Below, one piece after another: positions 3,080-63,441 of a stretch of DNA of 64,000 nt. How positions within the stretch are numbered: position 1 is the first letter of the stretch; each line of letters starts with the position of its first letter. This DNA comes from Malacoraja senta. Its lineage: Eukaryota. The stretch lies in assembly GCA_038087875.1 (NCBI GenBank), contig CM075994.1, positions 5,582,001-5,646,000 of the forward strand. Direction: 5' to 3'. The notes beneath the pieces are model-generated. The model was given only the letters and a program-made list of their open reading frames with translations. It had not been told where the DNA came from and ran no database searches. A program made the position numbers and the translations under genes.

Positions 3080-3264
3080 CCAGAGGCAGTGGCAAAGGTC
3101 CAACAATGTTGACGAAATGAGAGGAACGCTAGAAGTTCAAGCATTCCATAGTGAATTCGACCCACCACAATGTGAGCATTTCAAATGACTACAACCGGTA
3201 TGTCACTGATTCGAAACTAAAGAGTGATCAAAATGCAGTGACGTTAAATTGGATTGCAAACTTC

Positions 3265-4773: not shown

Positions 4774-4809
4774 CGACATCTTTTCGAATTGCTTGTATTT
4801 GTTCTATTT
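4774..4809 (-). CDS. Gene A micro-exon, 36 nt (xIEQIQAIRKDV)
   Basis: Acceptor tttgtttttag, donor g|gtaaga, phase 1-1. Confidence 0.65.
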
Positions 4810-7800
4810 CTAAAAACAAATATAAGCAACAGTTATAATCCTATGTTCCAATGTAAGTGAGTCATGAGTAATCTGAAATGTGTGAGGCATATCATGTGCT
4901 TGGTATAGTTTGTCTATGGACAGTCTATGTACTTTGTCCATTTAAACATCCACTTTTAAAAATACGGTTGTGCAAGATACGTTGACGTCCAAACGTTACC
5001 CATTCCTTCTCTCCAGAGATACTGCCTCACCCGCTGTGTTACTCCAACATTTTCTGTCTACCTTCGACAGAACATAATATTCGCGTGTCCCTTTAGTAGA
5101 GCACTTCCACAGTATTTCACTGTACTTTGAAGTGCATGAATAACGTATTATGTCAGGGTCTTCCAAGTAAGTTTCGTGCTTCAAAGACAACTAAAATAAT
5201 ATATATATTTTTTAAGTTTTGAAAGTGCAATTTCGGGCAAGAAAACCATATTTTGTCCTGGAGAATAGATTCGACTATTCTCAAGAATGTTATCGTGGTG
5301 ACACATTAACACTCTAATACCGCCAATAAAATGCTTCCATTCACTCGGTGTGGAGCCTTGTAGATTATCTGCAAGTGTTTCATGGAAGAACTGCGGCATT
5401 CTGCGCATAGCTGCTTTGCTGTAGAAACCATGCATAACTATCAACCAAAATAACCCATTATTATGTATATGGGCAATTTACCTTCAGCGGTAGAATGGCA
5501 CAACTAGAACAGCCGCTGCTACACAAAGCCTGAGACATGTGATACTGAACTCAGATGTTGTCTGTGTGGAGTTTGGATGTTTTTCTGCGAACTTTCTTCT
5601 CAGTGCACTGGATTCCTCCAACGACCCTTAGCATTTCCAGGATAATATCGTCTGTAAGTCTCCCCCTCCCCCATCCCCAAATTATTGGATGTGGTGATTG
5701 ATTTTAGGCGTGAATACGGTGGGCCGAACTACCTCTTTCCATACTGGATGACGAAGCTCAGTTAATTATTACGTTATACGTCGAAAGAAAATTACGCAAA
5801 GTACAGTAATTATGTATAATACTGGTTTACACGAAGAAATGTGCAGTAAATATGTTGCCTACTTCTTCAGCAATATCATTGCGACTTTTCCATGATTTAT
5901 TTTGCTTTTGTCCATAGAGTCACAATTTTCCGAGAGAACGGTGAATTAACTGCTTTAACACTTAATAAAAACACACCCGTTCTCGTTTCCCGCAACCTTG
6001 TCTCTATGATTAAAACATAAGAAAACAGTTAGCTTTCCCAAAACGTTGCATGACCAACATACTAGCTGATATCTTCTTAGCAAGCATAATAGTTCAGAAT
6101 TTCTTGGAAAACTAGGTAATACAATAGGAAATATCGCACAATATTTGCGAGAATGTTAATATTCACTGGTATGTTTTGCTGATATTCAATTAAATGACGA
6201 GAAAATCGTTAAATAATTCGCCATTTAACGAAACATAATCGCATTGCTACCCTTCTCCAGATGTTCATGACGCTTCATCCCTGCGTTTGCTCGGGTAATA
6301 TGTTTTACTTCGTATTGGGAGGATATTTGTAGCAACACGGTATCATTGCATGATTCGGTAAGCATAATGCGCATTCGTGTTCTTTATTATATAAAACATG
6401 TTCATGTCCTATTTACCAGATTTAATTTGGGAAAAATATAATGAATTTGCATTATATCAAAATATCGTGATTTTTACGAAAACATATTCATTGAAATGTT
6501 ATAGCCGCCTCTTTGGCCAATAATATTCGCTAAATATGTGGCACATATAATTCTACTGGACTAGACGTTCTATTCGATGTTTCCACTAATTTAACATAGA
6601 AACATAGAAACATAGAAACATAGATAATAGACTGAGGACGAGGGCATTTGGCCCTTCGAGCCAGCATCGCCATTCAATGCGATCTTGGTGATCGTCCCCA
6701 ATCAATAACCCGTGCCTGCCTTCTCGCCATATCCCTTGATTCCACTAGCCCCTAGAGCTCTACCTAATTCTTTCTTAAATCCATCCAGTGATTTGGCCTC
6801 CACTGCCCTCTGTGGCAGGGAATTCCACAAATTCACAACTCTCTTGGTGAAAAGGTTTTTTCTCACTTCATTCTTAAATGGCATCCCCTTTATTCTAAGA
6901 CTGTGGGCCCTGGTACTGGACTCGCCCAACATTGGGAACATTTTTCCTGCATCTAGCTTGTCCAGTCGTTTGATAATTTTATACGTTTCTATAAGATCCC
7001 CCTCATCCTTCTGAACTCCAGTGAATACAAGCCTAGTCTTTTCAATCTTTCCTCATATGACAGTCCCGCCCTCCCAGGGATCAATCTTGTGAACCTACGC
7101 TGCACTGCCTCAATCACAAGGACGTTCTTCCTCAAATTAGGATTCCAAAACTGTAGGTAAAGCTCCAGATGTGGTCTTACCAGAGCCTATACAACTGCAG
7201 AAGAACCTCTCTACTCCTATACTGAAATCCTCTTGTTATGAAGGCCAACATTCCATTAGCGTTCTTCACTGCCTGCTGTACCTGCACGCCAACTTTATGT
7301 GACCGGTGTACAACGACACCCAGGTCTCGCTGTACCTCCCCCTTAAGTAACCTAACCCCATTGAGATAATAATCTGCCCCTTAGTTTTTGCCACCAAAGT
7401 GGATAACCTCACATTTATTTATATTATACTGCATCTGCCACGCATCTGCCCACTCGCTCAACCTTTCCAGGCCACACTGCAACCTGCTAACATCCTCTTC
7501 ACAGCTCACACTGCCACCCAGCTTTGTGTCATCCGCAAACTTGCTAGTGTTGCTCCTAATTCCCTCTTCCAAATCATTAATATATATGGTAACTGTTGCG
7601 GCCCCAACACCGAGCCTTAAGGCACCCTAGTCGCCACTGCCTGCCATTCTGTAAAGGACCCGTTCACACCTACACTTTGCTTCCTGTCTGCCAACCAATT
7701 TTCTATCCACGCCACCATCCTACCCCTAGTACCATGCGCTCTAATTTTAGTCACCAGTCTCCCGTGCGGGTCCTTGTCAAAGGCTTTCTGAAAGTCTACA

Positions 7801-10800
7801 TACACTACATCCACTGGCTCCCCTTAATCCATTTTATTGTCACATACTCAAACAAATCCAGAAGATTAGTCAAGCATGATTTTCCTTTCATAAATCCATG
7901 CTGACTTGGACTAATCCTTTTACTGCTATCCAAAAGCCCCATTATTACCTATTTAATAATTGACTCCAGGATCTTTCCCACCACCGAAGTCAGGCTAACT
8001 GGTCTGTAATTCCACGTTTTCTCTCACGCTCCTTTCTTGAAAAGTGGGATAACATTAGCTATCCTCCAATCCGTAGGAACTGATCCTGAATCTATTGAAC
8101 ATTGGAAAATGATCACCAATGCGTCTACTATTTCAAGAACCACCTCCCTGAGGACCCTAGGATGCAGTCCATTAGTCCCCGGGGATTTATCATCCTTCAG
8201 TCCCATTAGCTTGCCCAATACTATTTCTCGCCTAATGAAAATTTATTTCAGTTCCTCGACCACCATAGATCCTCTGTCCTCCAGTACTTCTGTGAGATTG
8301 TTTGTGTCTTCCCTAGTGAAGACAGATCCGAAGTACCTGTGCAACTCTTCTGCCATTTCCTTGTTCCCCATAATAATATTACCCGTGTCTGCCTCCAAGG
8401 GACCCACATTTGACTTTGCTACTCTTTTTCCTGTAACTTATGTAAATAAACCTTTACTGTCCTTCTTCATATTCCTAGCCAGCTTCCCATCGTACTTCAT
8501 CATTTCAGCCCGTGTTGCCCGTTTTGTTTCCTTCTGTTGTCCTAGGAAAGATTCCCAATCCTCTGGCTTCCGGCTACTCTTTGCTGTGTTATACATCTTT
8601 TCTTTTAGTTTTATTCTATCGCTAACTTCTCGTCAACCACAGTTGCCTCCTACTTACCTTTGAACCTTTTCTCCTTTTGGAATGAAATGATCCTGTGTCT
8701 TCCTGGATTATGCCCAGAAAGTCCTGACATTGCTGTTCCACCGTCATTCCTGCTAGTATCCCTTTCCAATCTACCTTGGCCAGCTTCTCTCTCATGCCTT
8801 CATAATCCCCTTTGTTCAGCTGCATCACTGACACTTCCGATTTAACCTTCTCCTTCTCAAATTGCTGATTAAAATTATGCATATGTCATCACTACCTCCA
8901 AGCGGTTCCTTTACCTCGAGTTCTCTTATCAAATCTGGTTAATTGGACAACACTAAATCCAGAATTGCCTTTTCTCTCTTCGGCTCCATTACAAGCCGCT
9001 CTAAGAATGCATCTCGGAGGCATTATCTTTGTTACATGCCAGTTTGAACTCCTGCTGCAACCTATCTTGTTTGAATGTATAATTGTCAGCCTATAATTGG
9101 TTGCTTACACGAATAGAAGTTACCGTAACGTATCGAATTTCCTGACAGGTTTACTTATCAGTCCACTTTTTACTTCATTGTGTTTATTGTCAATATTAAT
9201 CCATTTGCGCCTTTTCCTTGCTAACGTAAATATCACGGCAAGGGGCGTAATGCAAATATATATTTTCGAAAGGACGATTAAAGTTCGCCGTTCTTTCAAG
9301 AACGTCGGATAATTTTGATGACATGCTCTGTACAGAGTAATGTTTGGTTCTTACCGTCTTCTTTCATGTGACCTTCAATGATATCAATAGAGATTACAGT
9401 TACGATTGCAAAAACGAGAGTGCTAACAACAGCGATATTAAGTCACGTGGGGGTAAATGTAATACAACCATATTTAAAAACCGAATACCTTATTGCAATA
9501 CTACTTAAACAAATTGAATAAACATAAGTGTACCTGTCTCTTTATCAGCTGTGAACAGGGAGAAATGTGGCATATAACTATTAAACCATAGCAAGATGCA
9601 TTATTAATTTCAAGTAAGGCACACGGAAAGGAAATACATATAAATGAGAAAGCAACATATGCCCCCTCCACCCACAGAACGAGGTCAATTCTGTTCAAAT
9701 TGTTTACTATTTTCAACAAATTCCAGTGCAGAAGATCAATTATAACAACAAAAGAAAAATGTGGACTGAAATTTACTAGCAAATATCATTACACAAGCGA
9801 AATGGAATACTGAAATTCAGCGAGGATGGTTGCATATAAGAAGATATTTAAGCTTTCAACTTAATTTAAAAGCATGCACGCTCACTTTGATCCCGCAACC
9901 GTCTTTTCAGTTCATCCAACTCTGTAACATCAAAATATCTTTCTGTCAATATGTTCAACAGCGTACCCTTCAATCGCATTATATAAAGCCTTCACCTCTG
10001 GAGCATCACAGAATCAGACAATGCAGTCGTTCTAAAATTCCACGTCTTTCGTTTGACGTTCGCCAATCAGATTCATTCAGAGTCTACAGGATTTATTGTA
10101 TCTCTACCTCAACTCCTTTGTGAGGATTGCAACGTGAATTCTTAACAGGTTTCTCTTCCAGGGAATCTGTATGAACAATATTTGTTTTCGTTCTCTGCTG
10201 ACAGATGTACCGCGAGATCTGTTGAGCTATGCAGTATTTTGCATCGCAAAGTTCCATAATGTATTGTTTGGCTCGTTGGTTCATTCCATATCTCTCCATT
10301 ATAGTATTGCCATTAAAATGCGGTCACCCATCAGTTCCCTGTCAGCAAGACCACGTTCTGCAATTCAATCACGTTCTGACCTATATTGCGAACCAGGCAA
10401 CTGATTTTTTTCTCTCATAATTGCCATGTTTTTTGCGACTTAAATAATTTTCGAAGACGAACACTTCCGAAGAAGGATCAGATGTATGTACCACGGGATT
10501 GGACACCTACGACGTGGATTTATTCTTCGCAGACTGCACTGCTGATGCAATTAATTTCTGGATTTGAATGTCCTTGTGAAAATAAATTTGGCGAGTAGGT
10601 ACAGTGTAATCTCTACTCAAGAACCAGGTCAATGGTTAATTTAAGACTGGTATTACTACTGGTGTGACAGGTATTGATTATATACTTTTTTTTTTAAAGT
10701 AAATGGGTTCGAAGTCATCATTTGAATTTTGGCGACAATTTTTTGTGCTGAATTGGTAAGTCAAACCCGAAACATTGCCAATTATTTCCCTTCCGTGATG

Positions 10801-13800
10801 ATATCTATCCCGCTGACTTCCTCCAGCGTTTTGTATCTTTGGTCAGGCACATGAGTTCGTCACGCTCCCTTCAACAGACAAATGGCGCTATATCGATTAT
10901 CGATAAAACTATATTACAATTGAGTTTTCCTGACAAAATACCCTGCCTAGGTTCAGTGCCGAATTTTCATCTTACCAAAAAAATAGCCTCGAACCTATTC
11001 TGTCGTCGAATCCGTTAACAACATTTGTACTTTTGGAACAACACTGATCTTCAATGCCTTCATATGGTGTTAGAATCTATGGAAATAACTGTCAATCTGA
11101 AGTCTGATAGATTTTTTTTCTGAGGCAGGATCTCCATTCAACGTTAACAGCTATCGGTCTGTCTCGTCGTCATCGAAGATTTGGTGCCTCCAAGTTTATC
11201 TTGTTGCGTAGGAAAAACAACAATCTATGTATTTGTAAGATAAACCACCCCTTTTTATACAACATAGAAACATAGAAACATAGAAAATAGGTGCAGGAGT
11301 AGGCCATTCAGCCCTTCGAGACTGCTTCGCCATTCAATATGATCATGGCTGATCATTCAACTCAGTATCCTGTACCTGCCTTCTCTCCATACCCCCTGAT
11401 CCCTTTAGCCACAAGGGCCACATGTAACTCCCTATTAAATATAGCCAATGAACTGACCTCAACTACGTTCTGTGGCAGATAATTCCGGAGATTCACCACT
11501 CTCTGTGTGAAAAATGTTTTTCTCATCTCGGTCCTAAAATATTTCCCCTTTATCCTTAAACTGTGACGCCTTGTCCTGGACTTCCTCAACATCTGGAACA
11601 ATCTTCCTGCATCTAGCCTGTCCAACCCCTTAAGAATTGTGTAAGTTTCTATAAGAACACCTTAAATCTTCTAAATTCTAGCGAGTACAAGCCGAGTCTA
11701 TCCAGGCTTTCTTCATATGAAAGTCCTGACATCCCAGGAATCAGTCTGGTGAACCTTCTCTGTACTCCTGCTATGGCAAGAATGTCTTTCCTCAGATTTG
11801 GAGACCAAAACTGTACGCAATACTCCAGGTGTGGTCTCAACAAGTGGTGTGGTACAACTGCAGTAGAACATCCCTGCTCCTATTCGCTTTCTTCACTGCC
11901 TGCTGCACCTGCATACCTACTTTCAATGAGTGGTGTACCATGACAGCCAGGTCTCGTTGCATCTCCCCTTTTCCTAATCGGCCACCATTCAGATAATAGT
12001 CTACTTTCCTGTTATCCCATCAATGTGGATAACCTCACATTTATCCACATTATACTGCATCTGCCATGCATTTGCCCACTCACCCAGCCTATCCAAGTCA
12101 CCTTGAAGCCTCCTTGCATCCTCCTCACAGCTAACACTGTCCCCCAGCTTTGTGTCATCCGCAAACTTGGAGATGTTGCATTCAATTCCCCCGTCCAAAT
12201 CATTAATATATATTGCAAATAGCTGGGGTCCCAGCACTAAGCCTTGCGGTACCCCACTAGTTACTGCCTGCCATTCTAAAAAGGACCCGTTTACTCCTAA
12301 TCTTTGCTTCCTGTTGCCAGCCAGTCCTCTATCCACATAAATACTGAACCCCCAATACCGTGTGCTTTAAGTTTGTATACTAATCTCTTATGTGGGACCT
12401 TGTCGAAAGCCTTCTGAAAGTCCAGATATAACACATCCACTGGTTCTCCCTTATCCACTCTACTAGTTACATCCTCGAAAAATTGTATAAGATTCGTCAG
12501 ACATGATTTACCTTTCGTAAATCCATGCTGACTTTGTCCAATTATTTGACCACTTTCCAAATGTTCTGCTAAACAATCTTTAATAACTGACTCTAGCAGT
12601 TTCCCCACTACCGATGTTAGATGAACTGGTCTGTAATTCCCCGTTTTCTCACTCCCTCCCTTTTTAAAAAGTGGTGTTACATTAGCTACCCTCCAATCCT
12701 CAGGAAATACTCCAGAATCTAAGGAGTTTTGAAACATTATCACTAATGCATCAACTATTTCTGGAGCTACTTACTTACGTACTCTGGGATGCAGCCTATC
12801 TGGCCCTGGTGATTTATCGGCCTTTAATCCATTCATTTACCTAACACCACTTCCCGGCTAACCAGGATTTCACTCAGTTCCTCCATCTCATTTCCCCCGC
12901 GGTCCCCTGCTATTTCCGGCAGACAATTTATGTCTTCCCTAGTGAAGACAGAACCAAAGTAGTTATTCAATTAGTCTGCCATGTCCTTGTTCCCCATGAT
13001 CAATTCACCTGTTTCTGACCGCAAGGGACCTACATTTGTTTTAACTAATATTTTTCTCTTCGCATATCTATAAAAACATATGCAGTCAGATTTTGAGTTC
13101 CCTGCTAGTTTTCTTTCATAATCTATTTTCCCTTTCCTACTTAAGCCCTTTGTCCTCCTCTGCTGGACTCTGAATTTCTCCCAGTCCTCTGGTTGGCTGA
13201 TTTTCTGGCTAATTTGTACGCTTCATCTTTTATTTTGATACTATCCCTGATTTCCCCTGTTATCCACGGATGCACTGCCTTCCCTGATTTTCAAATACGT
13301 GCCAAAATAATTTGGTGATCATGTCTCTCTTCACCACCCAAGAGTACAAATAATTATTTTTAAAATAGCCATGCAAATTAATATATTACCAACATCTTTT
13401 TTGCGAATATCGCTTTCTGCAAGAAAAAAAACTTTAACATAATACCGTTCAGCAAGGGTTTCTAAAACAGTTGGATACACAATCATCCTTTTTTTCTCTT
13501 CCCATCTATTTTTCTTTAATAATACACAGGAAATAAAAATCGGGATGAATGCAAAGTGGTACATGTATTCATTTTTTGCTGCGATAATACCACTATCTTA
13601 TTAGTACGCAAATATTGTCCATTGGCTGATCGTCCGACCTTTAATTAGCCATGCAAGAGTCTTCATTGATTTGTAAAACTCACAACACCAATTTGTGTAT
13701 GTGTGTGTGTGTGAGGGCATTTTTAAAAATTGATTTCGAAGTGACTTGTGCATTTTAATGTTTTTGTGGAATATTTGGAAGATAAGGAAGCTTTAATATA

Positions 13801-16800
13801 AAATGACTATGAAATATACTGAGAAACTTTCCTGTTTCGAAATGTCCGACAAAATTACGGTCTTATTATCCCCGAACTGCTTATAGGATATAGATATCAG
13901 CACGAATGATCTCTGCCTGAGATTAAAATAAATAATGTGAATCTAAAAGAATAAAAAAAATGTTCTACAAACTGCAAGTTGTTTTTCAGCATGATCACAT
14001 GGCTCTTAAGCCCGTGCACTGTAAAGTCGCAGATCTGTCTATGACGTTAACTCAAATTACCTAAAATTAAGTAAACATCCATCCCCGCCAACAGTACTAT
14101 TTTATCGAGTTGAACCTGTTTCTGCTAAGTACTGTCGCTTGTTTCTTTACTTGGAGCTTTAAACATTTCCAGATACATTTCTCACCAGAATCTTGCAAGT
14201 TTTCCTTCAATGTATTTATTTCTGGAAAATAAAAGAATAATAACGACGGTTGAGTCATTTATGTTCTTATCACAGCTAACTTATGAAGATGAATCTGTTT
14301 GTGACATAAATCTGGATGTACACATGATTTTCTTTATTCACTTCGTCTGTTTTATGAACTCAGGAAGAACGTGCAATTCCTGATCTATTTCGTTCGGTTT
14401 GTTGAATCAAATTATCACATAAATATGTAGGACAGCTTTCCATTGCATTTAACTCATGGTATCTGATGTCAATGTAAAATCATACACATCAATTTTGCAG
14501 GTATTTCCAAATCGAAAACGATGTATTATCTATCCCAGTCTATCACGTTCAGACTTAGGTATTTTATTTTGTCCAATATTATGGTCTTAATATTTGAGTG
14601 TATGAAAAGGCACTTGATGTTTTCAGTCGCCGCTTTATTATGTTTGATCATGTATTTGTGAATGTGGTTTTCTTACTATAATATCGAAAAGTGTATTGAC
14701 ACATTTACATCAATTGATATATTTCAAGTGTCTGGCAGTTTAAGCCTATTATTAGCCATGTCAGCAATCCATTGGACCATAGAGGATGTTCAGTCGTATG
14801 TTATCAACGATATGATATTTGAGGTATATTTGTTACTTAAGAAGGCGCTTCCCTTCGCCCGCTGTAACCTCGCACGTGGAGGGAATTGATTAATTATCCC
14901 TTCCACCCATATCGGATGTGTTAACAGCCAGGACAAAGGCGAATCAGTACCGACATGCAGCATAATTGAGCTGTCAAGGGCCCTATATAGAAGCATTGTG
15001 GAAGCTAATATTATGTTTGCTGTTTTATGCGCCCGTTTCATGGCCGAGGAAGGCATACGCATGAAATAACAGATTTAACTAACAAAGATATTTTCATCAC
15101 CATCTCAAGTGATATCTTGGAAATAAATTTAGGACTGGATTATGTGGTTAGAAATAGTCAAAGGTGAAAATGATTGGAGAATTCAACAACATATACTGCA
15201 AACTGAGTGCGAAATCGTTCTAACTTCACAGTATATCAGATTGCAGGTCGAATTTGGCTGCAGAACTGTGATATATATTCTGCATTCTGCAATTTTCCCT
15301 TTGATCTGTCTTTTGGACTTGTTTGACGTCTGCATTTATGTATGTTTCATCTGATGTCTTCGGATAGCATACAAATAAAACATCACTTAACCTCGGTGCA
15401 AACATCAAGAATAAAACCAAATCTCTCTGAAAGCGTTTGTGTGGTCAATTATGAATGAGTGTTTCATTTAAAATTTAACAGATGAGCCGCTGTAGGCCAT
15501 CGATGCTTAGTGGTCTTGACGGAATCAACATTATTGGAGAAAGGCTCATGTCAGTGGTCTAGTAAATTAAACACCAGACCACGCTGGTGGACAGGCTGAA
15601 CTGGCATTCCTTGGAAATGATTTTGAAAGATAATGGATAAATCAGGGAAGTGCTCCGTTATTGGAATAACTCTATAGTTAACGCATTAGCTTTTAGTCTA
15701 ATTAATTAGGATATCCTCTGTACTAATTGCTTAGATTGAAACAAGCAGGCTGTTTACTGAATAATGTCTATTCTTTTTATATTCCTGTCCAGGAAGGACA
15801 TTAAAAGGCTGTAAATTTATTGTTAGAGAATATAATATCCTTGGAACAACAAAGCCAGGAGAATGCAGATTGTATCTTCTAGCTGGCACCATGGACTTTT
15901 GTCACGGTTCTCTATGCAAGCTTACATTTTCCAATCCAATTAAGTTACACTCGCACGTTATGAATCGCAAACCACGAGAGTATAAATTAATACACGTTGT
16001 CATAATTAGTTTTACTCTATGAGGATGTCGGTGAAATTAACCACTTTTTCTTACCTTTATCTTTTAGAAGAAGTTGCCTCACTGGCAAAAAAAAAGAACA
16101 AACCAATTGTAAACATGCTGTCTTATAAATTGTCACCATATCAAAGTTGTATACATAATTGTCTTAAATTATACAATCAGTCAAGGCATGATGAAGTGAT
16201 TCGCAGACCGGAGCAAAATCTGTGTTTATATTATTGGAGGATTGTATTTGATTCTAAATATAAGCGGCGTTGCGGGACATACATCAAACTAAACGTCACA
16301 GCATGGAAGTAAGGATACTATTAAGAACGCTTTTGCTGTAGTAAACCATTTCCATTATAGCGTTCTATCATAATAACTTTACGAAGTAGAAATGTACATT
16401 AAGGTGTGGAATGGATAATGGAATGGGTATGCATTTCTTTGCACCTCAAAACCCTCCGTAGCCAATCATTCTCATCCTTTGACACGGGGACAGGAAAGCC
16501 GTTGCGAATCCAGCCGCGGTTTGCATTTTGTGAACAGCCTGGTCACCGCGACCGCATTCTCTCGAAAGGCGGCTCGGAAGTTATGTTGGAAAGCGATCTT
16601 TATTTACCGATGAATGTCAATTAGATGAGAGCAATGAATGAAGTGCAGCTGGCAGCTGAGCGAAATCCCGAACATTCTCGCTTCAGTGATCAGTCTGCAT
16701 CACTTGGGTTCGGTACATGATGAAGGGCAAAGAGGGGGTCAGGTACATTTGCTCATCCAGTTGCTTGTCAACATGCAGCTAACAAGCATTTTCACCGTGC

Positions 16801-19800
16801 TAAGCTAATTGCTAATATCCCACAGACGATGGGAATCTCCGATGTCATTTATCAGCTTTATTTATGTTTTTACTTTTTGAGGTACAGCGTGAAAACAGGT
16901 CTTTCAGTTCACCGAATCCACCGAATGACCGCCATCGGTACCCAGTCGCACTAGTTCCATGTTTCCGCACTTACATCTCCACAACCTGCTTAGAGGGAGC
17001 AATTTACAGAGGCCAATTAACCTGCAAACCCGGACGACTTTAGGATGTGGGAGGAAAACGGAGCATTTGAAGGAAAATCATGCGGTCATTGGTAGAGTAT
17101 GCACAATCCACACAGACAACGCACGATATCAAGATCTAACCCAGGTGTCAGGCACATTAAAGCATGAATTCAACCAGCTGCGCCACCGTGCCGCCCTGTG
17201 CCATTTTTTTCGGAGACAGCCGGTCGATAGGTACTAAATTGCGCATGGAGTAAATGAGGTCCTTGAGGAGTATAAAGAATGTAAAAAGTATCTTAACAAA
17301 TACATTAGAAAAGCTAAAAGAAGATATGAGGTTGCTTTGGCAAGTAAGGTGAAAGTAAATCCAAAGGGTTTCTACAGATATATTAATAAGAAAAGGATAA
17401 CATTTGTCCATTAGAGAGTCAGAGTGGACAGCTATCTGCAGAGTCAAAAGAGATGGGGGAGATATTGAACAATTTATTTTCTTCGGTATTCACCAAGGAG
17501 AAGGATATTGAATTATGTGAGGTAAGGGAACCAAGTAGGGTAGCTATGGAAACTATGAGGATCAAAGAAAAGGAAGTACTGACACTTTTGAAAAATATGA
17601 AATTGGATAAGTCTCCAAGTCCTGACAAGGATATTCCCTAGGACATTGAGTGAAGTTAGTGTAGAAATAGCAGGGGCTATGACAGAAATATTTCAAATGT
17701 CATTAGAAACGGGAATGGAGCCGGAGGATTGTCGTACTGCGCATGTTGTTCCATTGTTTAAAAAAGGTTCAAAGAGTAAACCTGGAACTTCCGGTGGGGG
17801 CGGCAAGTTGGAGTAGTCGCACTTTTTCCAGCTCCCGACCTTTTCACCTCCAACTTTTATTACAGCTCAGTCTAAGTTTTTTAACCACCCACAAACATTT
17901 AAACATCATTGTGAGTACCTCTCTATGCTGTAAAGATGCCAAACAAAGGAAAGAAAGCGGAGCAAAAGACAGAAAACCCGGCGACCAGCACCAGCACCAG
18001 TATGGCCACGCTAGCAGCCATGTTAACAGAACATAAGGTATTGTTACTGGCAGAATTCAACACTGCGTTTACCAAATTGGAAAAGAAGCTGGACAATATC
18101 CAGACCACTATGCTAGACCACCAACACCGTCTCTCGTCATTAGAGTCTTTCGCCGCTACCACTACCCAAGATATACGAGCTTTAACGTCAATGTTAACTA
18201 CGGTGACCGAAGAGAACGCCAAGCTAAAGGCTAAGCTTATCAGCCTGGAAAGTAGGAGTCGCCGAAATAACATAAGGATAGTGGGTCTTCCAGAGAATAT
18301 CGAGGGCTCCCAAACAACAGCGTTTTTCTCTCAATTTCTGCTCGAGACTCTTGGTGAGCACATACTGGAATCAGCCCCGGAGCGAGACCGAGCCCACCGT
18401 ACGCTAACAGCCAAGCCAAGCCCTGGTGAGAAACCCAGAGCAGTTGTGATCTGCTTTCATAGATACCAGACCCGTGAGTTGGTGGTACGTGAGGCTCGGA
18501 GGCAGAGGGGTAAGCTGAAATACAAAGATACCCCGTTCCACATTTTCGAAGACTACTGTCCCGAGATAGTTGAACAACGCTTCGCGTACCGAGACGTTAT
18601 GAAGGAGCTGTATAACCTGGGTTTCAAACCCTCCCTTCATTATCCAGCCAAGCTGTTCATTACGTCCGGGGAGGGAAAGAGGCGACGACTAACATCTCCC
18701 GAGGACGCTCGGGATTTCATCTCATCTTACCGTCGACGCAGACCGGGACCCACAGATGACTGACTTCGTTCAGTACGTCTATATTCGAGTGGCACAGGGG
18801 CACGGTTAACCTATGGTTACATGGACTAACTTTAGCTTGACTGTTCCTAATATCTAGCTAAGGTTAGCGTTCAGCATTGCTGATTATGTTAGACCCCGGC
18901 TTCGAAATGTATGAGGCTGGTAAGAAATCATCAGGATTTGCGAATATTTTATATCAACTTTTTCTTATATTGTCTGGGTGTGACCATGCTTGAGGGGTCC
19001 CTCACCAGCATATGCTATAAAGCTGGGCTTAAGGGACCCACTTTGTGGTTTGTGATTTGGTCTCTGCCTTTCTGTTCTTAGCAGCTGGCCGCTAACGCTG
19101 TCAGCACCTGGCTAGTTTGTTTATACTAATCTTCATAATGAACTGTCTGGGGCTGATAAGAGCTCATTACAGCCAGGACTGTGTTATACAAATCTTATTT
19201 TATACCTTTTTTGTTTAACAAAACATAATTGATGCCTTTGGCGTTGCGCCCTAATCCAACAGCCCAGTTTGTAATTTGCTAACTTCACCAATGCTAACTC
19301 TCTCTTTATACTTTGTCGATTTTAAGACATACTATGCAACACCAAAGGAAGTTATTCTGGCTCCACTTACACGCTAACCGGTTTACTTAGTATCACCATT
19401 TTGTTAATAGGCTTTGTCTTATTGTGACTATCATCATTGCTATTATTACTATTAGTGTTAGCAATGGTACTGGCAGTACAACCATTATGATTATTATTTT
19501 AACCTTGCATTTATCAATGTATGTTTATCTTACTTCATTCCTATTCTCTGTTTTTCATATTATTATCATCATCGTTATTATTACTATTACTATACTTATT
19601 TTATTTCATGTTACATTATCGACACTGAGTGACTCCGTCGCTTTGGGAAGCTGTGATATAGGGAGTTAAGATCGGATATCTCCATGCGGAAGCGAGGACA
19701 ACGCACCTTGGTGCAATGGGCACTTAAGGTTCAGTTGACACATGGGGGATCTCAGGTCTGGAGACTCAGGTTTGAAAGATGGTTAAATGAAATGTGTCCC

Positions 19801-19893
19801 ACTTGTTTGTCGTGTGTATATGTTTTTGTTCTTGTTTTTTTGTTTTTTTGTTTTTGTTTTATTTTACTTCACATATATATATATATATGTATG

Positions 19894-19928
<35 letters not shown>

Positions 19929-22900
19929 CCCCCCCCCCCTCCATATCCCCACTCTTGGCAGCTGGTTTCGATGCGCTCTTCCGTCGCGTTCTGCAGAACT
20001 ACAGTGCATTACCCATATAGCTAAAAATGGCCAACACAAACGATACTCTTAGATTTGTCTCGTGGAACGTGAGAGGGATGGGAAGTCCTACCAAAACTGA
20101 CAGGATCTTGGCCCATTTGCAACAGCTCAAAGGCGATATATTCTTTATCCAATAGACCCACCTTCGCAACAGAGAGGTAACACGGCTTAAGAGAGGCTGG
20201 ATTTGTCAACTATTTCACTCGAAATTTAATAATAGGGCTAGGGGCACCGCTATCTTGATTCGTAAGAACATTAAGTTCGAACCACAGAAAACTGTGGAAG
20301 ACCCTGCTGGTCGCTTTGTCATGGTGTCGGGCAAACTGCAAGACACACCTGTCATATTGGCAAGCATTTATGGACCCAACTGGGATGACAGCTCATTTAT
20401 AACTAAATTTTTTACATCTCTCCCAAATATTGAAAATCACCATGTCATTGTGGGTGGACATTTTAATCTGGTCCAAGATCCTATACTGGATAGATCTTCG
20501 AATAAAGCCTCTACTTTAACTAAATCCGGTAAGACTCTGCGTGTTCTTGCCAAACAACTGGGGCTCACAGATCCATGGAGATTTATATCCCCCACGACTA
20601 AATTATTTTCATTTTTCTCCCATGTACATCGTACGTTTACCCGTATAGACTTCTTTCTCTTAGATAATAGATTGCTCTCCAAAATCAAATCCAGTGAGTA
20701 CCATAGCATCGTAATATCAGATCATGCTGCGACCTCCCTGGATCTTCATTTTTGTAAACGAACTAACCCTTTAAGTGGAGGTTCAACTCCTTATTAAAAT
20801 AAAACTATTAGCAGAGGCTCACTACATGCAATTCTTGCACTCTCAAATCACCCTATATTTTGAGCTGAATGACTCGCCGGACATAGAAAAGAGGTATACT
20901 TTGGGAAGCTTCAAAAGCTTATATTAGGGGCCAACTCATTTCCTTTATCTCCAACCTGAAAAGAACCGAGACGTTCCAAACGGCAGATCTGTTACAAAAA
21001 AATAAAGGACATTGATGACAAATATGCATCCGACCCAAACCCTAATCTCTATAGAGAACGCCTTAGGCTACAAACAGACTTTGACCTCATATCCATTAAC
21101 AAAGCCAAACTACGACTGCTTAAATCTAGGCAACACTTTTTTGAATCTGGGGATAAAGCTGGAAAGCTCTTGGCCCATCAGGCCAGAACAGAGGCGACTT
21201 CACGGCTAATTCCAGCCATTAGATCCAGCTCAGGGGAGACTCATACTGATCCTCTCAGAATTAATGAAGCATTTGCTAAATTCTACACTGAATTATACAC
21301 TTCCGACTGTCCCCCCACTGCAGGTGACATGTTCAGTAGTATGAGGCTTCCTCGAATTTACGAAGAAGCTATGAGAGACTTGGGTGGTCCCATAATTGTA
21401 GCTGAGGTCCAAGCAGCCATCACATCGCTGCAAAGCGGAAAGTCACCCGGCCCTGACGGCTTCTCCGTAGAATATTACAAAGCTTTCTCTGACCTCCTTG
21501 CACCAGTCCTGAGAGATATGTATAATGAGGCGTTTTTACACCGTCGCCTACCGCCCACCTTGTCGTGGGCTACCATCTCCCTAATTCTTAAAAAGGAGAA
21601 AGATCCCCTGCTTTGTGGTAGCTATAGACCAATCTCGCTCCTGAATGTGGACCTCAAAATCCTTTCTAAAGTTCTTGCGCTTCGTCTTCAGCAAGTGATG
21701 CCCTCTATTATCTCGTTGGATCAAACAGGGTTTATACCTGGCCGACAGTCTTCCCATAATACTAGGCGTCTCCCTTAACATCATTCACTCTTCGAGTAAT
21801 GAGACCCCGGAAATGGTGGTCTCCCTCAATGCCGAAAAGGCCTTCGACAGGGTTGAGTGGAGGTACCTTTATGAAGCGATGGATAGGTTGGCCTCGGCAA
21901 CAGTTTTATTCTCTGGGTGAGCCTATTATATTCGTCTCCGGTGGCCTCAGTACAAACAAACGACATACTGTCGCCCCACTTCACACTTCAGAGAGGTACC
22001 AGACAGGGTTGCCCGTTATCTCCACTCTTGTTTGATGTCGCGATAGAACCCCTGGCGGTCTGGTTACGCGCAGAGAAGGGCTTTGAAGGTATTACACGGT
22101 TTGACACAACTCATAAAGTCTCATTGTATGCGGATGACCTGCTCTGTACATCTCGAACCCAGTCAGTTCTCTCCCTGTGATTATGAATATTTTAGAACGG
22201 TTTGGTGCATACTCTGGTTATAAACTTAACTACCAAAAGAGTGAGCTACTACCGATTAACTTACCGGCTAAGCAGCTCCCTCGCTCTTTAACCTCATTCA
22301 AAAGGGCAGAGGATGGGTTTCGCTATCTCGGCGTTTTTATCACAATACCCTTATCTGATATGTTCCGCACAAACTTTTTGCCTCTGGTTGAGAAAGCCGA
22401 AAAGGATTTTGATCGCTGGTCAGTCTTACCTCTATCCCTCGTGGGCCGGATAAATCTGGTTAAGATGGTTGTCCTACCCAAATTCCTGTATCTTTTCCAA
22501 CATATCCCCATACTTATCACCAAATCTTTTTTTGACAAATTAGAAAGGACAATATCTAAATTCATATGGGGTAGCAAACCGGTCAGAATCCGAAAGGCGA
22601 TACTGCAGTCTCCTAAGTGTGATGGCGGTTTGGCCCTCCCTGATTTTAGGCGATACTACTGGGCAGCTAACTTGCAAAAAATCCTGTATTGGATGAATGA
22701 TGATTGCGAGCACCCACCGATCTGGGTATACATGGAAAAGGCGAGTTCACGTCTCCCATTCCGGTCTGTCTTAGCTCCCAACTCCCTCTTTCTATAACAT
22801 CTGTGGGTGCAGGCCCAATTGTGTCCCTTTCGCTCAAGATATGGTGCCAATTTAGGAAAAACCTCGGTTTACAGGGTCCTTCCATCTTGACCCCACTGCT

Positions 22901-25900
22901 TAAAAATCACATTTTTAAAACCTTCAAGTATAGACCACGCATTTAAAAACCTGGCATAGCAATGCATCAGTAGTATTAAAACCTATATAAGGATGGTATC
23001 TTCTCATCTTTCGCGGAGCTCTCGTCTAATTACAACCTCCCAGCCTCCCACCTTTTTCGGTTTTTCCAGATTAGGGACTTTGTGAAGAAGACATTTCCCT
23101 ACTTCCCAAATCGCCCTCCTGAAACCCTGACCGATATCATCTTAGCTTTAGACCCCAATCGGAAGAAATGCATCTCTATTTTATATAATTTGCTAGGGTC
23201 GGTTTTAATGAAACCTCATACCTCATTAAAAGCTGTGTGGGAGGGAGAGCTGAATACGCAATTAACAGACCAGCAATGGGACTCTGTCTGGATTTGACCC
23301 ACTCTTCTTCTATATGCGCTCGTCATGGCCTAATCCAATGCAAAGTCCTTTACAAAGTCCACTATACAAATGTAAGATTGGCTAGATTGTACCCAGCTGT
23401 CAATGACACCTGTAACAGATGTAGTCAATCTCCCGCCAACCATAGCCACATGTTTTGGTCTTGCCCTAAGCTAGCAGCCTTTTGGAGGAGTGCTTTTGAA
23501 TTGATAAGTAGAGCTTATGACCAGACTATTCTTCCAAATCCAATGTCAGCCATTTTCGGTACCCCTCCTAATACCAACCTCTCTGTTGCGGTGAAACGGT
23601 CCTAGCTTTTACAACCTTGTTAGCCCGGAGACTGGATCTTGCTTAATTGGAGGCTCACCTGTCCCCCGACACACGCCCGTTGGATTAAAGAGGTGCTCTA
23701 CAATCTGAAACTTGAAAAACTTAGGTTCTCTCTCAAAGGTTCTATCAAGACATTCCTAGATACATGGAACCCTTTCCTTGAATTGGTTAACTCTCTTACC
23801 TTGTCCCCGGACTCGGAAGAGGACTGAGTGTTCTCCATCATCGTTTTGTTCTACAGCAGCTGCTTTCCCCTTAACCTCCCCTCCCTACAATGGTTTATTG
23901 AGATATAAACGTATATGTATATGTATGTCTTAATGAATTTAGAAAAAATATTGATTGAGATTTTTATGTATATATATATATATATATATATTTTTATTTT
24001 TTTTTTATTTTTATTTTTTATTTTTTTTTTTTTTTTATTTTTTTTATTTTTATATAGCACATTTTGTTTCGTCTATTCTACCATTTGTGTGTGGATGTGT
24101 ATGTATGTGAGTGCTGTTTGTCCTCGTTTGGCTCCGACCTGACTTGGGTGGGTTGAGGGTGGGTATGGGTAAGGGTTTTGAGGATCGCTTACATACTGTT
24201 GTACAATTATGCCTTGATTATTACTGTCCGTTATTATTGTATGTATGTAAATTGCCGTGAAATTCAATTAAAAATTGTTTATTTAAAAAAAAAAAAAGAA
24301 ACAAAGAGTAAACCTGGCAATAGTAGACCTGTTAGTTTGACGTATATGGTGGGCAAATTAATGGACAGGATATTTATAGATAATATATATAATCATCTGG
24401 ATAAACAAGGTCTGATTAGGAACAGGCAACATGGATTTGTGCCTGGAAGGTCATGTTTGAGTAAGCTTCTTGAATTTTTTGAAGAGGTTACTAGGGAAAT
24501 TGATGAGGGTAAAGCAGTGGATATGGACTTCAGTAAGGCCTTTGACAAGGTTCCACGTGGAAGGTTGGTTAAGAAGATTCAATTGTTGGGTATTAATAGT
24601 GGAGTAGCAAGATGGATTCAACAGTGCCTGAATGGGAGATACCAGAGAGTAATGGTGGATAACTGTTTGTCAGGTTGGAGGCTGGTGACTAGAGGGGTGC
24701 CTCAGGGCTCTGTGTTGGGTCCACTGTTGTTTGTCATATACATCAATAATCTGGATGATGGTGTGGTAAATTGGATTAGTAAGTATGCAGATGGCACTAA
24801 GATAGGTGGAAATTGTGGATAATGAAGTAGATTTTCAAATTCTACAGAGAAATTTAGGCCATTTGGAAGAGTGGGCTGAAAGATGGCAGACGTAGTTTAA
24901 TGCTGATAAGTGTGAGGTGCTACATCTTGGCAGGACAAATCAAAATAGGATGTACATGGTAAATGGTAGCGAATTGAGGAATGCAGTTGAACAGAGCGAT
25001 CTAGGAATTACTGTGCATAATAATAATAATAATGGATGGGATTTATATAGCGCCTTTCTAATACTCAAGGCGCTTGTGCATGGTTCCCTGATGGTGGGAT
25101 CTCATGTAGATAGGGTGGTAAAGAAAGTTTTTGGTTTGCTTACCTTTATAAATAAGAGCATTGAGTATAGAAGTTGGGATGTAATGTTAAAATTGTACAA
25201 GGCATTGGTGAGGCCAATTCCGGCGTTTGGTGTACAATTTTCGTCGCCAAATTATAGGAAAGGTCAATAAAACAGAGCGAGTACAGAGGAGATTTATTAG
25301 AATGTTGCCTGGGTTTCAGCACCTTAGTTACAGAGAAAGGTTGAACAAGATAGGTCTTTATTCTTTGGAGCGCAGAAGGTTAAGGGGCGACTTGATAGAT
25401 GTCTTTAAAATTATGAGAGGGATAGACAGAGTTGACGTGGATAAGCTTTTTCCATTGAGAGTAGGGAAGATTCAAACAAGAGGACATGATTTGAGAATTA
25501 AGGGACAAAAGTTTAGGGTAACATGAGGGGGAACCTCTTTACTCAGAGAGTGCTAGATGTGTGGAATGACCTTCCAGTGGAAGTGGTGGAGGCAGGTTCG
25601 ATTTTATCATTCAAATATAAATTGGATAGGTATATGGACGGGAAAGGAATGGAGGGTTATGGTCTGAGTGCAGGTAGATGGGACTAGATGAGAGCAAGTG
25701 TTCGGCACGGACTAGAAGGTCCGAGTTGGCCTGTTTCTGTGCAGTAATTGTTATATGGTTATATGGAAAAGGAGAACATGGCTTAAAACATCACAATGGG
25801 CATTACCATAGACAAACGCAGCACCTAAAAAGATTTTCACGATCCTCCACTCCTGTGATCTTGCGCCGTTTTCAAATCCAGTTGTGATGTTATTAGTATA

Positions 25901-26534
25901 TAAGCTTGTAAGGCTTTGAGCGGGTTTCTACATCCCTCAATTTGCAGTTTTTTTTCCTGCATCTGTATGTTCCCCTAATGCACGGAAATATTTCTGTGAA
26001 CCTAAACTGATTGACCAGCAAAGTAATAGGAGTGTGATAAAAGTTCGAGGGGCTCTATATAAAGAAAAATTAGTGTAATAAAACAACTAGAAAAATTCTA
26101 CAGGTTCCGAGAATAACTTGTGATATGTCAGGCGGATAGATTGCTTACAAATGATGTGCAAGGGAAACGCACGCTTTCAGAGCATAAACATGGAGGCAGA
26201 AAGCAAGAAGCGCCGAAGACCAGTTTATTTCTATCTGACCAAGAAGGAAATACATTACCTCTTTGCAATGCATCCCCTACCACTCCTATGTCTGCATACA
26301 TCAGATATAGGCAGGATTTTACGAATGTGGATTTAGAAATATAGCTCTATCCACACCAGGAAACGAATATATATTAAATATCATGTAAAAATTACTTTCT
26401 CAATTGTGCGACGGAGGTAATGTAACACAGCTTATATTTGCATCAATAGCGTCATTGTGCGGGCATTTGCTCACGCATTTAATTAAATTACATTCTTAAT
26501 TGCTTACGGGTATCTTGTAGAAGTTTTTTGAATT
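4774..26534 (-). CDS. Partial multi-micro-exon gene A (coiled-coil tail, butyrophilin/BG-like architecture; hypothetical)
   Basis: Six strong AG/GT-bounded phase-1 exons of 27 or 36 nt: 26508-26534, 16055-16081, 14186-14221, 13390-13416, 9886-9921, 4774-4809. Weaker 15-18 nt candidates: 25807-25824, 9534-9548, 9355-9372, 9124-9141. Spliced frame is open: xFKKLLQDT..xRQLLLKDK-EINTLKENLQDS-ESDIRKKDV-ELDELKRRLRDQ..xIEQIQAIRKDV. Confidence 0.7.
6594..9020 (-). mobile_element. CR1 LINE, 5'-truncated, degenerate ORF2
   Basis: RT motifs DFQKAFDK and SKFADDTKLGG; (catagaaa)n tail. Confidence 0.9.
9886..9921 (-). CDS. Gene A micro-exon, 36 nt (ELDELKRRLRDQ)
   Basis: Acceptor ttttgatgttacag, donor gtgagc, phase 1-1. 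Confidence 0.7.
11262..13290 (-). mobile_element. CR1 LINE, 5'-truncated
   Basis: NYRPVHLTS, QHGFTKGKSCLTNL, GVPQG and KFADDTKL motifs; (catagaaa)n tail. Confidence 0.9.
13390..13416 (-). CDS. Gene A micro-exon, 27 nt (ESDIRKKDV)
   Basis: Acceptor ttttttttcttgcag, donor g|gtaata. Confidence 0.7.
14186..14221 (-). CDS. Gene A micro-exon, 36 nt (EINTLKENLQDS)
   Basis: Acceptor cttttattttccag, donor g|gtgaga. Confidence 0.7.
16055..16081 (-). CDS. Gene A micro-exon, 27 nt (xRQLLLKDK)
   Basis: Poly-T acceptor ending gccag, donor aag|gtaaga; 21/27 identical to the plus-strand exon 63415-63441. Confidence 0.8.
16870..17200 (-). mobile_element. tRNA-derived V-SINE/HE1-type SINE
   Basis: Head ggcggcacggtggcgcag with the conserved body. 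Related copies at about 31010-31270, 31790-31950, 35300-35560, 39290-39575, 45330-45520, 50610-50840, 54985-55290, 56865-57165, 60775-61060, 61180-62110 and 63210-63390. Confidence 0.7.
17936..18763 (+). CDS. L1 ORF1p (Transposase_22-type coiled-coil/RRM/CTD), intact, 275 aa
   Basis: LESRSRRNNIRIVGLPE, RAHRTL and IFEDY motifs. Confidence 0.9.
   Translation: MPNKGKKAEQKTENPATSTSTSMATLAAMLTEHKVLLLAEFNTAFTKLEKKLDNIQTTMLDHQHRLSSLESFAATTTQDIRALTSMLTTVTEENAKLKAKLISLESRSRRNNIRIVGLPENIEGSQTTAFFSQFLLETLGEHILESAPERDRAHRTLTAKPSPGEKPRAVVICFHRYQTRELVVREARRQRGKLKYKDTPFHIFEDYCPEIVEQRFAYRDVMKELYNLGFKPSLHYPAKLFITSGEGKRRRLTSPEDARDFISSYRRRRPGPTDD
20027..23827 (+). pseudogene. L1 ORF2 (APE endonuclease, RT, Zn knuckle), disrupted
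   Basis: SWNVRG, RIDFFL, ISDH, KSPGPDGF, YRPISLLN, GTRQGCPLSP, YADD and CNRC..H..WSC motifs; nonsense codon near 20153 and several frameshifts. Confidence 0.9.
25019..25074 (-). mobile_element. 56-bp 3' end of an L2-tailed SINE inserted in CR1, 7-bp TSD
   Basis: Matches the 3' end of the SINE at 31333-31673; TSD tgtgcat at 25012-25018 and 25075-25081. Confidence 0.85.
26508..26534 (-). CDS. Gene A micro-exon, 27 nt (xFKKLLQDT)
   Basis: Acceptor ttgttatgtcattcag, donor gtaagc; first 13 nt are 11/13 identical to exon 60571-60597. Confidence 0.65.
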
Positions 26535-27499
26535 CTGAATGACATAACAAGAAAATAATTATATGTATAATATGTACATTAATCCGTTTGCGCTGGTTGC
26601 GCACAATACTGACACACACGCACATTTACACAAACACACAAACACTTGCACGTGCATCGACAAAATAGTACACATTAGGCACCCCGTATCCGATATTATT
26701 TCCCACATGTAAACATTAATACATGGTTTATTAAATTTCGACGAAGCGACTCTCATAAAGCACATCAATTTGGTTCCAAGAAATGTAAATCCAGCTCCAA
26801 TGATTGTTATTAAATGCTCTCATGCCCGGTCTTTATAGTCCTCATGTTTGTCTTCCATTCCTTTTCAAGAACTCACAAACATCATCATAATTTAACTGTG
26901 CTCAATTCCAGTTTCGTCAAGACATTCAATTCCACGGCATGCACCAACATTTATCCATGGTATGGACAAATGAAATTATCTTCAGGATACAAATAAAATG
27001 AATTATCTCTTTTCTGGAAGTCTTGAGGAAGGGATGGGACAATATAGCATTACGTTGAGTGACGTGATTCTATGAAACTGTTCAGTATTTGAACTGAATC
27101 GCTTCACAAAGAACGTTGATATTTGATGATAGATTTCGTGAAAGAATGATCTCATGATGAATGTCCCCTTAAAAATTGAGGACTGCAGTTTCGTACATGC
27201 CATTAGTCAACCGGTATGTTGCTGCAATTCAGAAAGTGCGTATCCAAGCCACCACATAGGTAACCCTTAAATCACGACAGAAATCGATTTAGGTCTGAAG
27301 AATTGGTTCACATTGACAGTGATAGCGAAAACAAGGAATGCAGTATCTCTAATTGATTTTATCTTGTAGATAATAATCCGGAGACCAGACTTTTGGAAAA
27401 TTAGCAGTCAGTCAGTCTGTTTTAATGACTACACTAAAACACGCATTGACCGTCAAATTGGTAGCAACATTGTTCTCCGCGGTACAGTTGTACTTCTAC

Positions 27500-29620
27500 C
27501 TCTTCTTCTGTCGTGTGTCTTTTAGACCTGCAGATCCGTTGAGGCGAGCCAGGCCAACGTGTCATCGTCCAGTTCAATCAGACCTCGTTCACCATTCGGT
27601 GGCCGGTGTTTGGGGCAACTATTGACTGTGTGCTCCACTTTCTGTGTTTAGTCCCCACACTCGCAGGAGGCGCTGTGCACGAGGCCCCACCTCTTCATCG
27701 CTACTCCATAGCGTGCGATGCCTGTCCTCAAGCGGTTGAGGGTTGTCCACTGCTTTCGGGGCAGGTCCTGGCCAGGGACGTCCATGGGGTCATCGATGTA
27801 ATGGTGTAGCCTTGATGGTTCCGCTGACTTCCACAGGTCTCTCCATCTCGTCTTGACCCAGGCAGCCTTAGAATCGTCAGCCGGTGTTGTGCAGTGCAGC
27901 TCTTGGGCTTGCGTGGCAAAGGGGTGCCGTGATTTGAGGCGCACTCGTCGTGGTGTCTCTGTGATGATCTGATGGGAGAGGTGGGATTCACTGGTCTATG
28001 CCTTTCGAGAGAGGGCCTGCGTGGCTGCTTCTCGTCTGATGTTGGCTGGGGCGAGCGAGGACGGGCAGTTGGTTTACTGGGGTGGCTCGTAGGCATCCGG
28101 GGACAGTCCGCAGGGCGCTGTTGAGGGCAGCATCCAGCTTCTTGGCGTGAGGGCTACGGCACCAGACCGGGGCGCAGTACTCGGCGGCTGAGAACACCAG
28201 GGCCACTGTGGACATGAGCAGTGTCATCGTCGTGGCTCCCCATGTGGTGCCGGCTAGGCGGCGAATCAGCGCGGCACGGGCGCTTGTCTTTGCCTTGGCA
28301 CCTTCCAGGTGTTGTTTGAATTACAACGTTCTGTCGAGCTTCACACCGAGGTACGTGGGGACAGGCTGGGACCGTAACCGGGCGTTATCCACCATGACGT
28401 TCATCTCGTGGGACGCTTCCTGTTGTTTGAGGTGGAACATTGAAGATGTTGTCTTACACAGGCTGAGCTTGAGGCGCCAGTTCTTCAGGTATGAAGACAG
28501 GATGTTCATGTCTTCAGCGAGGCCCTCTTCTGCTGCTTCCCTGGATGGCTTACTAAGTAGGATGGCCAGGTCATCAGCATAACCATACTTCTTTGACTGG
28601 GTTGCAGGCAGGTCATGGATGTAGATATTGAACAGCATTGGTGCCAGCACTGTCCCCCGTTCTTACGTTTCCTCACCCTGCTGCATTTCCGTTGCTGGTG
28701 TGTAGCCTGAAGCTGCGGTTGCTCATCATCTCCATGATGAAGCTCACCATGCGCTTGTCTGGGATGGTTTCCAGAAGCTTCATGTATAGTCCACGCAGCC
28801 AGACAGCATCATATGCAGCTGTGAGGTCCAAGAAGACAACGCCAGCCTTCTCCCCTGCCTGGAAACTGTCCTCTATGTCTTGGCACAGGAGGGTCAACTG
28901 GTCCGCCGTTGACCTACCGCTTCGGAAGCCAGCCTGTTCTTTAGGCAGATGGGGGTCGATCACAGGATTGAGACGTGTGTGGAGGAGACGTTCCAGTAGC
29001 TTGTATGGAACACACAGCAGTGAGATGGGTCGGTGTCCCTTGGGGTCATCGCTAGGCTTGTTTGGCTTCGGCAGGGCGATCACCTTGGCACGGCGCCAGA
29101 TCTTTGGGCTGCTTCAGGCAGCGGAAACACGTGGAGAGGAATGAGCACAACCAGTCATTTGCCTTCTTGCCTTTGAGTTTTATGAATTTGCGGGTGGATG
29201 CCGTTGGTGCCTGGTGCCTTGCCGGTTTTCAGCCGTCGGATGGCCTGGTCGATTTCTTGTTTTGTGAAATCGTGGGATAGGTTGGAGTCGCAGCTCGGGG
29301 TCCTGTGCAGCTCGTGGACTCTCGCCGATGTTGTTCTGCTGAAGTCCTAGTCTGCGTTGGGGAAGCGCCCATTGCTCAGCAGTAGCGACACGATGGAATT
29401 TGCAGTGTTGGGACACTTTGCTCGGGTTGTCGACCTGCCCATCAGCTTATTCATGGTCTGCCTCGCCTGGAGGCTGGAGTGTGAGAAATAAATTGAGTCC
29501 ACTGTCTCCGTCCATCTTTGCCTGCGTTTCTCATTTACTCAGCAGATTAGTTAATTCGCTGCTTTGTCCCTGTCTTCGCTGGTTTGTGATTCTGTGTGGG
29601 GCGCGAAGTATGTCTTCACA
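27500..29620 (-). mobile_element. RTE-X/RTE-like LINE fragment
   Basis: RPISLLCVPYKLLERL, EQAGFRSGRS, DLTAAYD, YADDL and AAEYCAPVW motifs; short gaa-repeat tail. Confidence 0.8.
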
Positions 29621-30742: not shown

Positions 30743-30942
30743 NNNNNNNNNNNNNNNNNNNNNNNNNNNNNNNNNNNNNNNNNNNNNNNNNNNNNNNNNN
30801 NNNNNNNNNNNNNNNNNNNNNNNNNNNNNNNNNNNNNNNNNNNNNNNNNNNNNNNNNNNNNNNNNNNNNNNNNNNNNNNNNNNNNNNNNNNNNNNNNNNN
30901 NNNNNNNNNNNNNNNNNNNNNNNNNNNNNNNNNNNNNNNNNN
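30743..30942. other. Assembly gap (200 N)
   Basis: Run of N. Confidence 0.95.
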
Positions 30943-31332
30943 GTAAAGAAAATCGAGGGGACACTTGTAAAATTCGCAAAATTCGGTAAGTTACAGAAAA
31001 ATACGCAAACATTAGTTGAGTTTAACGATACAGCGCAGAAAAAGAACTTCGGTCCTCCGGGTCCACATCGACCAGCGATTCCAGCACACTAACACTACCC
31101 TACAAACACTAGGGACATTTTTTTATTTATTTACCAAGCAAACTTACCTTAATGCCTTTATGTAGAAAAACTTGGAGGAAACTCACGCAGGTCACGGGGA
31201 GCAGCTACAAACTCCGTTAGACGGCACCCATAGTCGTAATGAACCCGGGTCTCCGGAGTCGGTGCCGCCCGATTTAAAAATTGGCGGAACATTTGTAGTT
31301 TGATCAACGAGCATACATTTCACGTCAATAAC

Positions 31333-32358: not shown

Positions 32359-63441
<31,083 letters not shown>

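Follow-up and report, generated by a model that had tools for sequence, protein, structure and literature searches.

Two 27-nt segments of a chromosomal stretch of Malacoraja senta, read on opposite strands, are quite probably genuine coding micro-exons, old duplicates of each other that belong to a large micro-exon gene or to a cluster of paralogous genes. The window, i.e. the whole stretch of DNA that was analysed, is 64,000 nt long. Near-saturated silent sites, loss of intron similarity and the conservation of seven residues out of eight together make a transcript-independent sign of old exon arrays that were once under coding constraint. The pair by itself is the expected outcome of exon duplication. 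The arrays around it are of wider concern, as genes made almost wholly of 27- and 36-nt exons evade ordinary gene finding and seed-based alignment.

The focal exon pair

The focal exon (16055-16081, minus strand) and its counterpart (63415-63441, plus strand) are identical at 21 of 27 bases, and both are bounded by a CAG acceptor and a GTAAG donor. Third codon positions hold five of the six differences, four of which are silent, and the remaining two differences are positions 2 and 3 of a K/T codon. Stops are present in phase 0 and phase 2 of both 27-mers, so that phase 1 is the sole open frame. A preliminary description of this DNA had reported the same six differences, with four silent third positions and two changes in the K/T codon, and the same conserved splice sites; our recount agrees with it on all these points.

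Over the eight whole codons (24 codon bases; 5.5 synonymous and 18.5 nonsynonymous sites), pS is 0.82 and pN 0.08, a ratio of about 0.10. Fisher's test on this ratio gives p = 0.018 by one path through the K/T codon and 0.0008 by the other, for a pair that is partly ascertained, having presumably been spotted through its alike translation. By simulation, the probability that at least 7 of 8 residues are kept given 6 substitutions is 0.012-0.029. The preliminary description had concluded from the pair that purifying selection was at work, and that both arrays were independently supported. The silent excess is indeed real, but small, and what the pair supports is limited to exons on contigs 1 and 3 of the window; the arrays as wholes rest on separate tests of splice sites, strand and composition. 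Most other exon pairs in the window have 0-4 of 8 residues in common, versus 7 of 8 for the focal pair. The focal module thus stands out; it may be conserved to an unusual degree, or be the duplicate that arose last.

Flanking introns and copy number

The earlier impression that the flanking introns were unrelated is borne out by alignment. Local scores of the flanks are at the level of shuffled sequences, both upstream (25, shuffle mean 22.9, equalled by 20 of 100 shuffles) and downstream (24, shuffle mean 20.8, equalled by 12 of 100). When positions 13271-17000 were compared by blastn with the right half of the window, the best match was the exon with its splice sites (48 bp, E 1.6e-5), and the 7 other matches were all at most 48 bp long, with E of at least 0.009. 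Near-saturated silent sites agree here with unalignable introns, and on these grounds the duplication behind the pair appears to be old.

The match might also be due to chance, or be a piece of a dispersed repeat. Repeats of the window do yield such matches: among its 452 AG-27-GT sites, 25 listed pairs reach at least 21/27, and the other 24, at 21-26/27, were found by inspection to sit in repeats. Against this, a random match of at least 21/27 has a p of 2.9e-8 per site (0.004 across both strands of the window), similarity does not extend past the exon with its splice sites, and adjacent exons match too, as described below. In DNA run X14, the summed depth, a rough measure as it is the depth of contigs, is 49 in the bin with the focal exon and 28-66 in other unique bins, versus about 1e5-7e6 in repeat bins, four orders of magnitude above unique bins. 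High copy number and homology reaching into the flanks, which would characterise a dispersed repeat, are both absent from the focal exon. Chance or a repeat is therefore largely refuted as the source of the match, and we find it barely credible. Both weaknesses that the preliminary description had foreseen, a 27-mer lying in a dispersed repeat and introns aligning equally well, were looked for, and what was found is a unique-level depth and introns that cannot be aligned between the two copies.

Micro-exon arrays

Exon candidates were scored on their intron-side splice bases alone, and a strict threshold left 114 candidates of 15-60 nt. Sense strands were defined as minus to the left of the first assembly gap (gap 1) and plus to its right. 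Lengths of 27 or 36 nt account for 13 of 53 sense-strand candidates versus none of 61 antisense ones (Fisher 2e-5), these lengths and the strand split at gap 1 having been picked post hoc; at three looser thresholds the same excess gives Fisher values of 5e-5, 1e-4 and 4e-4. No enrichment of 21-nt exons was seen on the sense strands.

Tests of phase, composition and end bases are independent of the post hoc choice. Phase 1 is open in all 13 strict exons, versus 576 of 933 control sites (p 0.002). Their 113 residues include no Pro or Gly (10.6% in controls, p 3e-6), and the share of E, K, Q, R and L reaches 58%, versus 33% in controls (p 2e-8). Their first base is A in 11 of 13 cases (p 1e-4) and their last base G in 10 of 13 (p 3e-4).

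Other exons also match between the arrays. Exons 26508 and 60571, which are the direct upstream neighbours of the pair only if the weak candidates -26259 and +62789 are not exons, have a shuffle p of 0.0014 (identity in Table 1). Exons 14186 and 36803 (shuffle p 4e-5, uncorrected) and exons 16055 and 46015 (shuffle p 0.0012, uncorrected) are related as well. Since the exons upstream of the pair match, the duplicated block would have held at least two exons, and the duplication would have come atop an older internal repetition.

Coordinates of the exon model are collected in Table 1, in which four weaker plus-strand candidates were included partly by eye. Candidates -9777-9809, -26259-26291, -521-543, +50897-50929 and +55379-55420 were left outside the model, as were +62789-62815 (GC donor), +55079-55105 (within a SINE-like repeat) and the 27-nt candidate -15758 (phase 1 closed).

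Table 1. Candidate micro-exons of the model and assembly gaps in the window.
Feature	Position	Strand	Basis
36-nt phase-1 exon	4774..4809	-	strict set
27-nt phase-1 exon	5977..6003	-	strict set
27-nt phase-1 exon	13390..13416	-	strict set
36-nt phase-1 exon downstream of focal exon, related to 36803-36838	14186..14221	-	22/36 identity
focal 27-nt phase-1 micro-exon, RQLLLKDK	16055..16081	-	splice sites, open frame, strict set; covered by DNA contig 14 without differences and also by diverged contig 15
27-nt exon upstream of focal exon, probable homolog of 60571-60597	26508..26534	-	15/27 identity
200-N assembly gap 1, exon strand switches here	30743..30942	.	sequence
27-nt phase-1 exon, first right of gap 1	33896..33922	+	strict set
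36-nt phase-1 exon	36803..36838	+	strict set
27-nt phase-1 exon	37347..37373	+	strict set
weaker 27-nt candidate, weak donor	39992..40018	+	picked partly by eye
27-nt phase-1 exon, more distant relative of focal exon	46015..46041	+	16/27 identity
weaker 36-nt candidate, weak acceptor	51227..51262	+	picked partly by eye
weaker 27-nt candidate	52668..52694	+	looser thresholds only
weaker 36-nt candidate	55466..55501	+	picked partly by eye
27-nt phase-1 exon	57515..57541	+	strict set
200-N gap 2, between exons 57515 and 60571	58101..58300	.	sequence
27-nt exon upstream of 63415	60571..60597	+	splice-site scan; match to 26508-26534
paralogous 27-nt phase-1 micro-exon, RQLLLKDT	63415..63441	+	sequence match to 16055-16081

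One gene or several

The window is composed of three contigs parted by two 200-N gaps, and the coding strand flips exactly at gap 1. The two copies had been described as 47 kb apart; their coordinates and strands are right, but 47 kb is not the true distance, because the gaps 30743-30942 and 58101-58300 separate them. Distance and opposite orientation of the pair both hinge on scaffolding across these two gaps, and neither should be cited as established.

Both arrays run up to gap 1 with internal-type exons and no unusual spacing (4.2 kb on the left, 3.0 kb on the right). Around the gap, between the two arrays, neither a domain match nor an obvious first exon was found, and CpG ratios picked out no promoter near it. 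The strand asymmetry of masked DNA is near zero on either side (TA skew 0.018 and -0.015) and says nothing on orientation. This leaves two readings: the gap may be much longer than its 200 Ns and conceal the 5' ends of both arrays, or the left contig may have been placed in the wrong orientation, which would make the pair an internal or tandem repeat. Since the strand switch falls exactly at gap 1, a single gene with one contig inverted deserves as much weight as a pair of inverted paralogs. Provided that the micro-exons are genuine, we lean slightly towards two or more paralogous genes, and we would put a single gene, with an internal repeat and a mis-oriented contig, a little short of an even bet. 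The coordinates in any case flag a possibly mis-oriented scaffold join at 30743-30942. Unique DNA shortly before the first micro-exon of the plus-strand array contains a 93-codon open frame (32792-33070, plus strand) without Pfam match.

A further, diverged copy

DNA run X14 contains exact contigs over 15042-16343 (0 differences, depth 17.7) and 9032-10618 (depth 23.9). It also contains diverged contigs over 15433-16343 (122 differences and 6 gaps, depth 21.1), 14180-14767 (81 differences, depth 22.8) and 9763-10618 (104 differences and 42 gaps, depth 19.5); for the adjacent stretch 16316-17022, a single contig of depth 31.8 is listed. At about 86% identity to the window, the diverged contigs hold exons 16055 and 14186 together with their introns; this is a further copy and not that of 63415, because the 63415 flanks do not align there. 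It may be a paralog of more recent origin or else a strongly diverged allele, and in both cases its presence would explain the fragmented assembly. At base 5102, both covering X14 contigs differ from the window, which points to an assembly error or to a different individual.

A more speculative proposal, which we consider unlikely, is that a cartilaginous-fish gene family employs its 27- and 36-nt phase-1 exons as exchangeable units of length in a giant rod placed before a B30.2 recognition domain, evolves by block duplication and exon skipping, and has at this locus two haplotypes, with introns that differ by about 14%, maintained by an MHC-like balancing polymorphism. If true, this would be an unannotated innate-immune locus under such polymorphism.

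Proposed product and its alternatives

We propose that both 27-mers go back to one ancient duplication, of a block of exons that also took in at least the respective upstream exon. The large gene, or paralogous gene cluster, would comprise numerous symmetric phase-1 exons, 27 or 36 nt in length, each of them coding for a module of 9 or 12 residues, mostly joined via a codon split as G and AN (Asp/Glu). Such modules could be duplicated, lost or skipped without frameshift. The product would be a helical rod free of Pro and Gly and rich in E, K, Q, R and L, probably oligomerising as a coiled coil, and it may carry a binding domain at its end, with B30.2/SPRY as the likeliest kind. Splicing of the exons and the coiled coil are what we infer from these features; that the array product ends in B30.2 is a prediction, which we hold to be fairly likely. 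Plus-strand exons 52668, 57515 and 60571 exceed the hydrophobicity expected of a plain coiled coil, and helical or heptad periodicity of the computationally spliced peptides is not significant (shuffle p 0.24 and 0.75), for which missing or false exons could also account.

Pfam was searched with 272 of the 275 non-repeat frames (3 frames over a TA repeat were omitted): there was no RING, B-box, Ig, lectin or SPRY match, and the 2 matches obtained were both under curated cut-offs. No B30.2 exon was found within the window. A protein search with the single contiguous frame around exon 14186, a query whose ceiling is about 18 bits, gave 7 candidates, none with E of 10 or below. A profile of single-exon peptides reached at most 11 bits against its own target and was set aside, and a degenerate exon pattern had 0 matches in metagenomes. 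In three of 13 runs of other organisms that were guessed to be RNA (shares 0.05-0.08), and in one DNA run, at 80% likeness, all 15 listed joints (1354 more were present) fell in LINE/SINE; these data were swamped by LINE/SINE contigs and give no evidence either way. Depth was low over 13702-16011 in run X1 (0.3-4.7) and was 8.5 at 13702-14163 in run X3, neither value being tied to exons.

Two other origins of the arrays were weighed against this proposal. The micro-exons could encode the cytoplasmic tail or extracellular neck of a butyrophilin/BG-like or other single-pass membrane protein, the Ig, lectin or transmembrane exons of which would be outside the window or in the gaps. The tails of chicken BG, which according to the accessible part of PMC5938342 come from split-codon 21-nt exons and are proposed to form a coiled coil, speak for such a protein; but the lengths here are 27 and 36, with no 21-nt series, and no Ig, lectin or SPRY match was obtained in the 272 frames, which makes it quite unlikely in our view. 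Alternatively, one or both arrays might be pseudogene fragments from a segmental duplication, in which the silent excess would reflect past selection only. Neither array has a first exon or a recognisable 5' end beside gap 1, an extra copy of about 86% identity exists, and the introns are crammed with transposons, all of which would suit such fragments. Nevertheless, all 13 strict exons have open frames and canonical sites despite introns diverged past alignment, and we regard decay into pseudogenes as decidedly unlikely.

Other features of the window

A near full-length L1-like LINE (17915-23700, plus strand), with an open 282-aa ORF1 and a frameshifted ORF2, lies antisense to the minus-strand array, in the intron upstream of the focal exon; its ORF1 is nearest to chordate-dominated clusters, and on this ground the DNA looks vertebrate-like. 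A degenerate LTR retroelement with gag/pol fragments, Gypsy-like by its motifs, occupies 40330-44230 (minus strand), and a pair of short direct repeats at 40084-40265 and 44198-44387 (81%) may be its LTRs. Three CR1-like LINE fragments (6641-8958, 11281-13268 and 47899-50197) are 72-87% alike. Two more decayed reverse-transcriptase elements, of other types, are found at 27480-29400 (minus strand) and 58400-60330 (plus strand). Short local direct and inverted duplications of 92-94% identity are present at 176-319, 2213-2505 and 2652-3082. CpG observed/expected in the non-LINE parts, mostly 0.7-1.0, exceeds what is usual in vertebrate introns and reaches up to 1.2 at 30001-31000 and 61001-62000.

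Comparison with known systems

Our literature search, the coverage of which left out most subscription papers, found no paper on such a chondrichthyan micro-exon gene family, and the accessible part of PMC11788884 contains nothing on one. The arrays seem to represent a solidly supported hidden type of gene, apparently unstudied in the literature searched.

One comparison in exon structure is with chicken BG genes. As far as the available text of PMC5938342 goes, these have exons of 21 nt (a few of 18 or 24), each coding for one heptad, behind Ig-V and transmembrane exons, and exon number varies among genes. The arrays resemble them in their many short split-codon (1+2 nt) exons, with a coiled coil presumed in BG (same part of PMC5938342). 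They differ in having 27- and 36-nt exons, and the window has no 21-nt heptad exons, no Ig match in its 272 frames and no visible transmembrane exon; the 5' ends may fall in the gaps or beyond the window.

If the B30.2 link holds, the proposed product would be similar to TRIM and finTRIM proteins, in which a coiled coil spaces a C-terminal B30.2 (PMC2657112, part seen). The coiled coil of finTRIM is encoded by a 96-bp and a 234-bp exon that follow the RBB exon (same portion of PMC2657112). In contrast to that portion's account of finTRIM, the rod here is micro-exonic and no RING/B-box match is present in the window; the arrangement expected of a TRIM (C-IV) gene, a RING/B-box exon together with coiled-coil exons close to 96 and 234 bp in length, is not seen within it.

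Finally, Schistosoma MEGs encode short secreted parasite proteins, the longest of 189 aa, in the part of 10.1101/2023.06.21.545858 that was accessible. They belong to an unrelated lineage and offer an analogy only, but according to the same text they share with the present arrays very short exons amid long introns, which are hard to annotate automatically.
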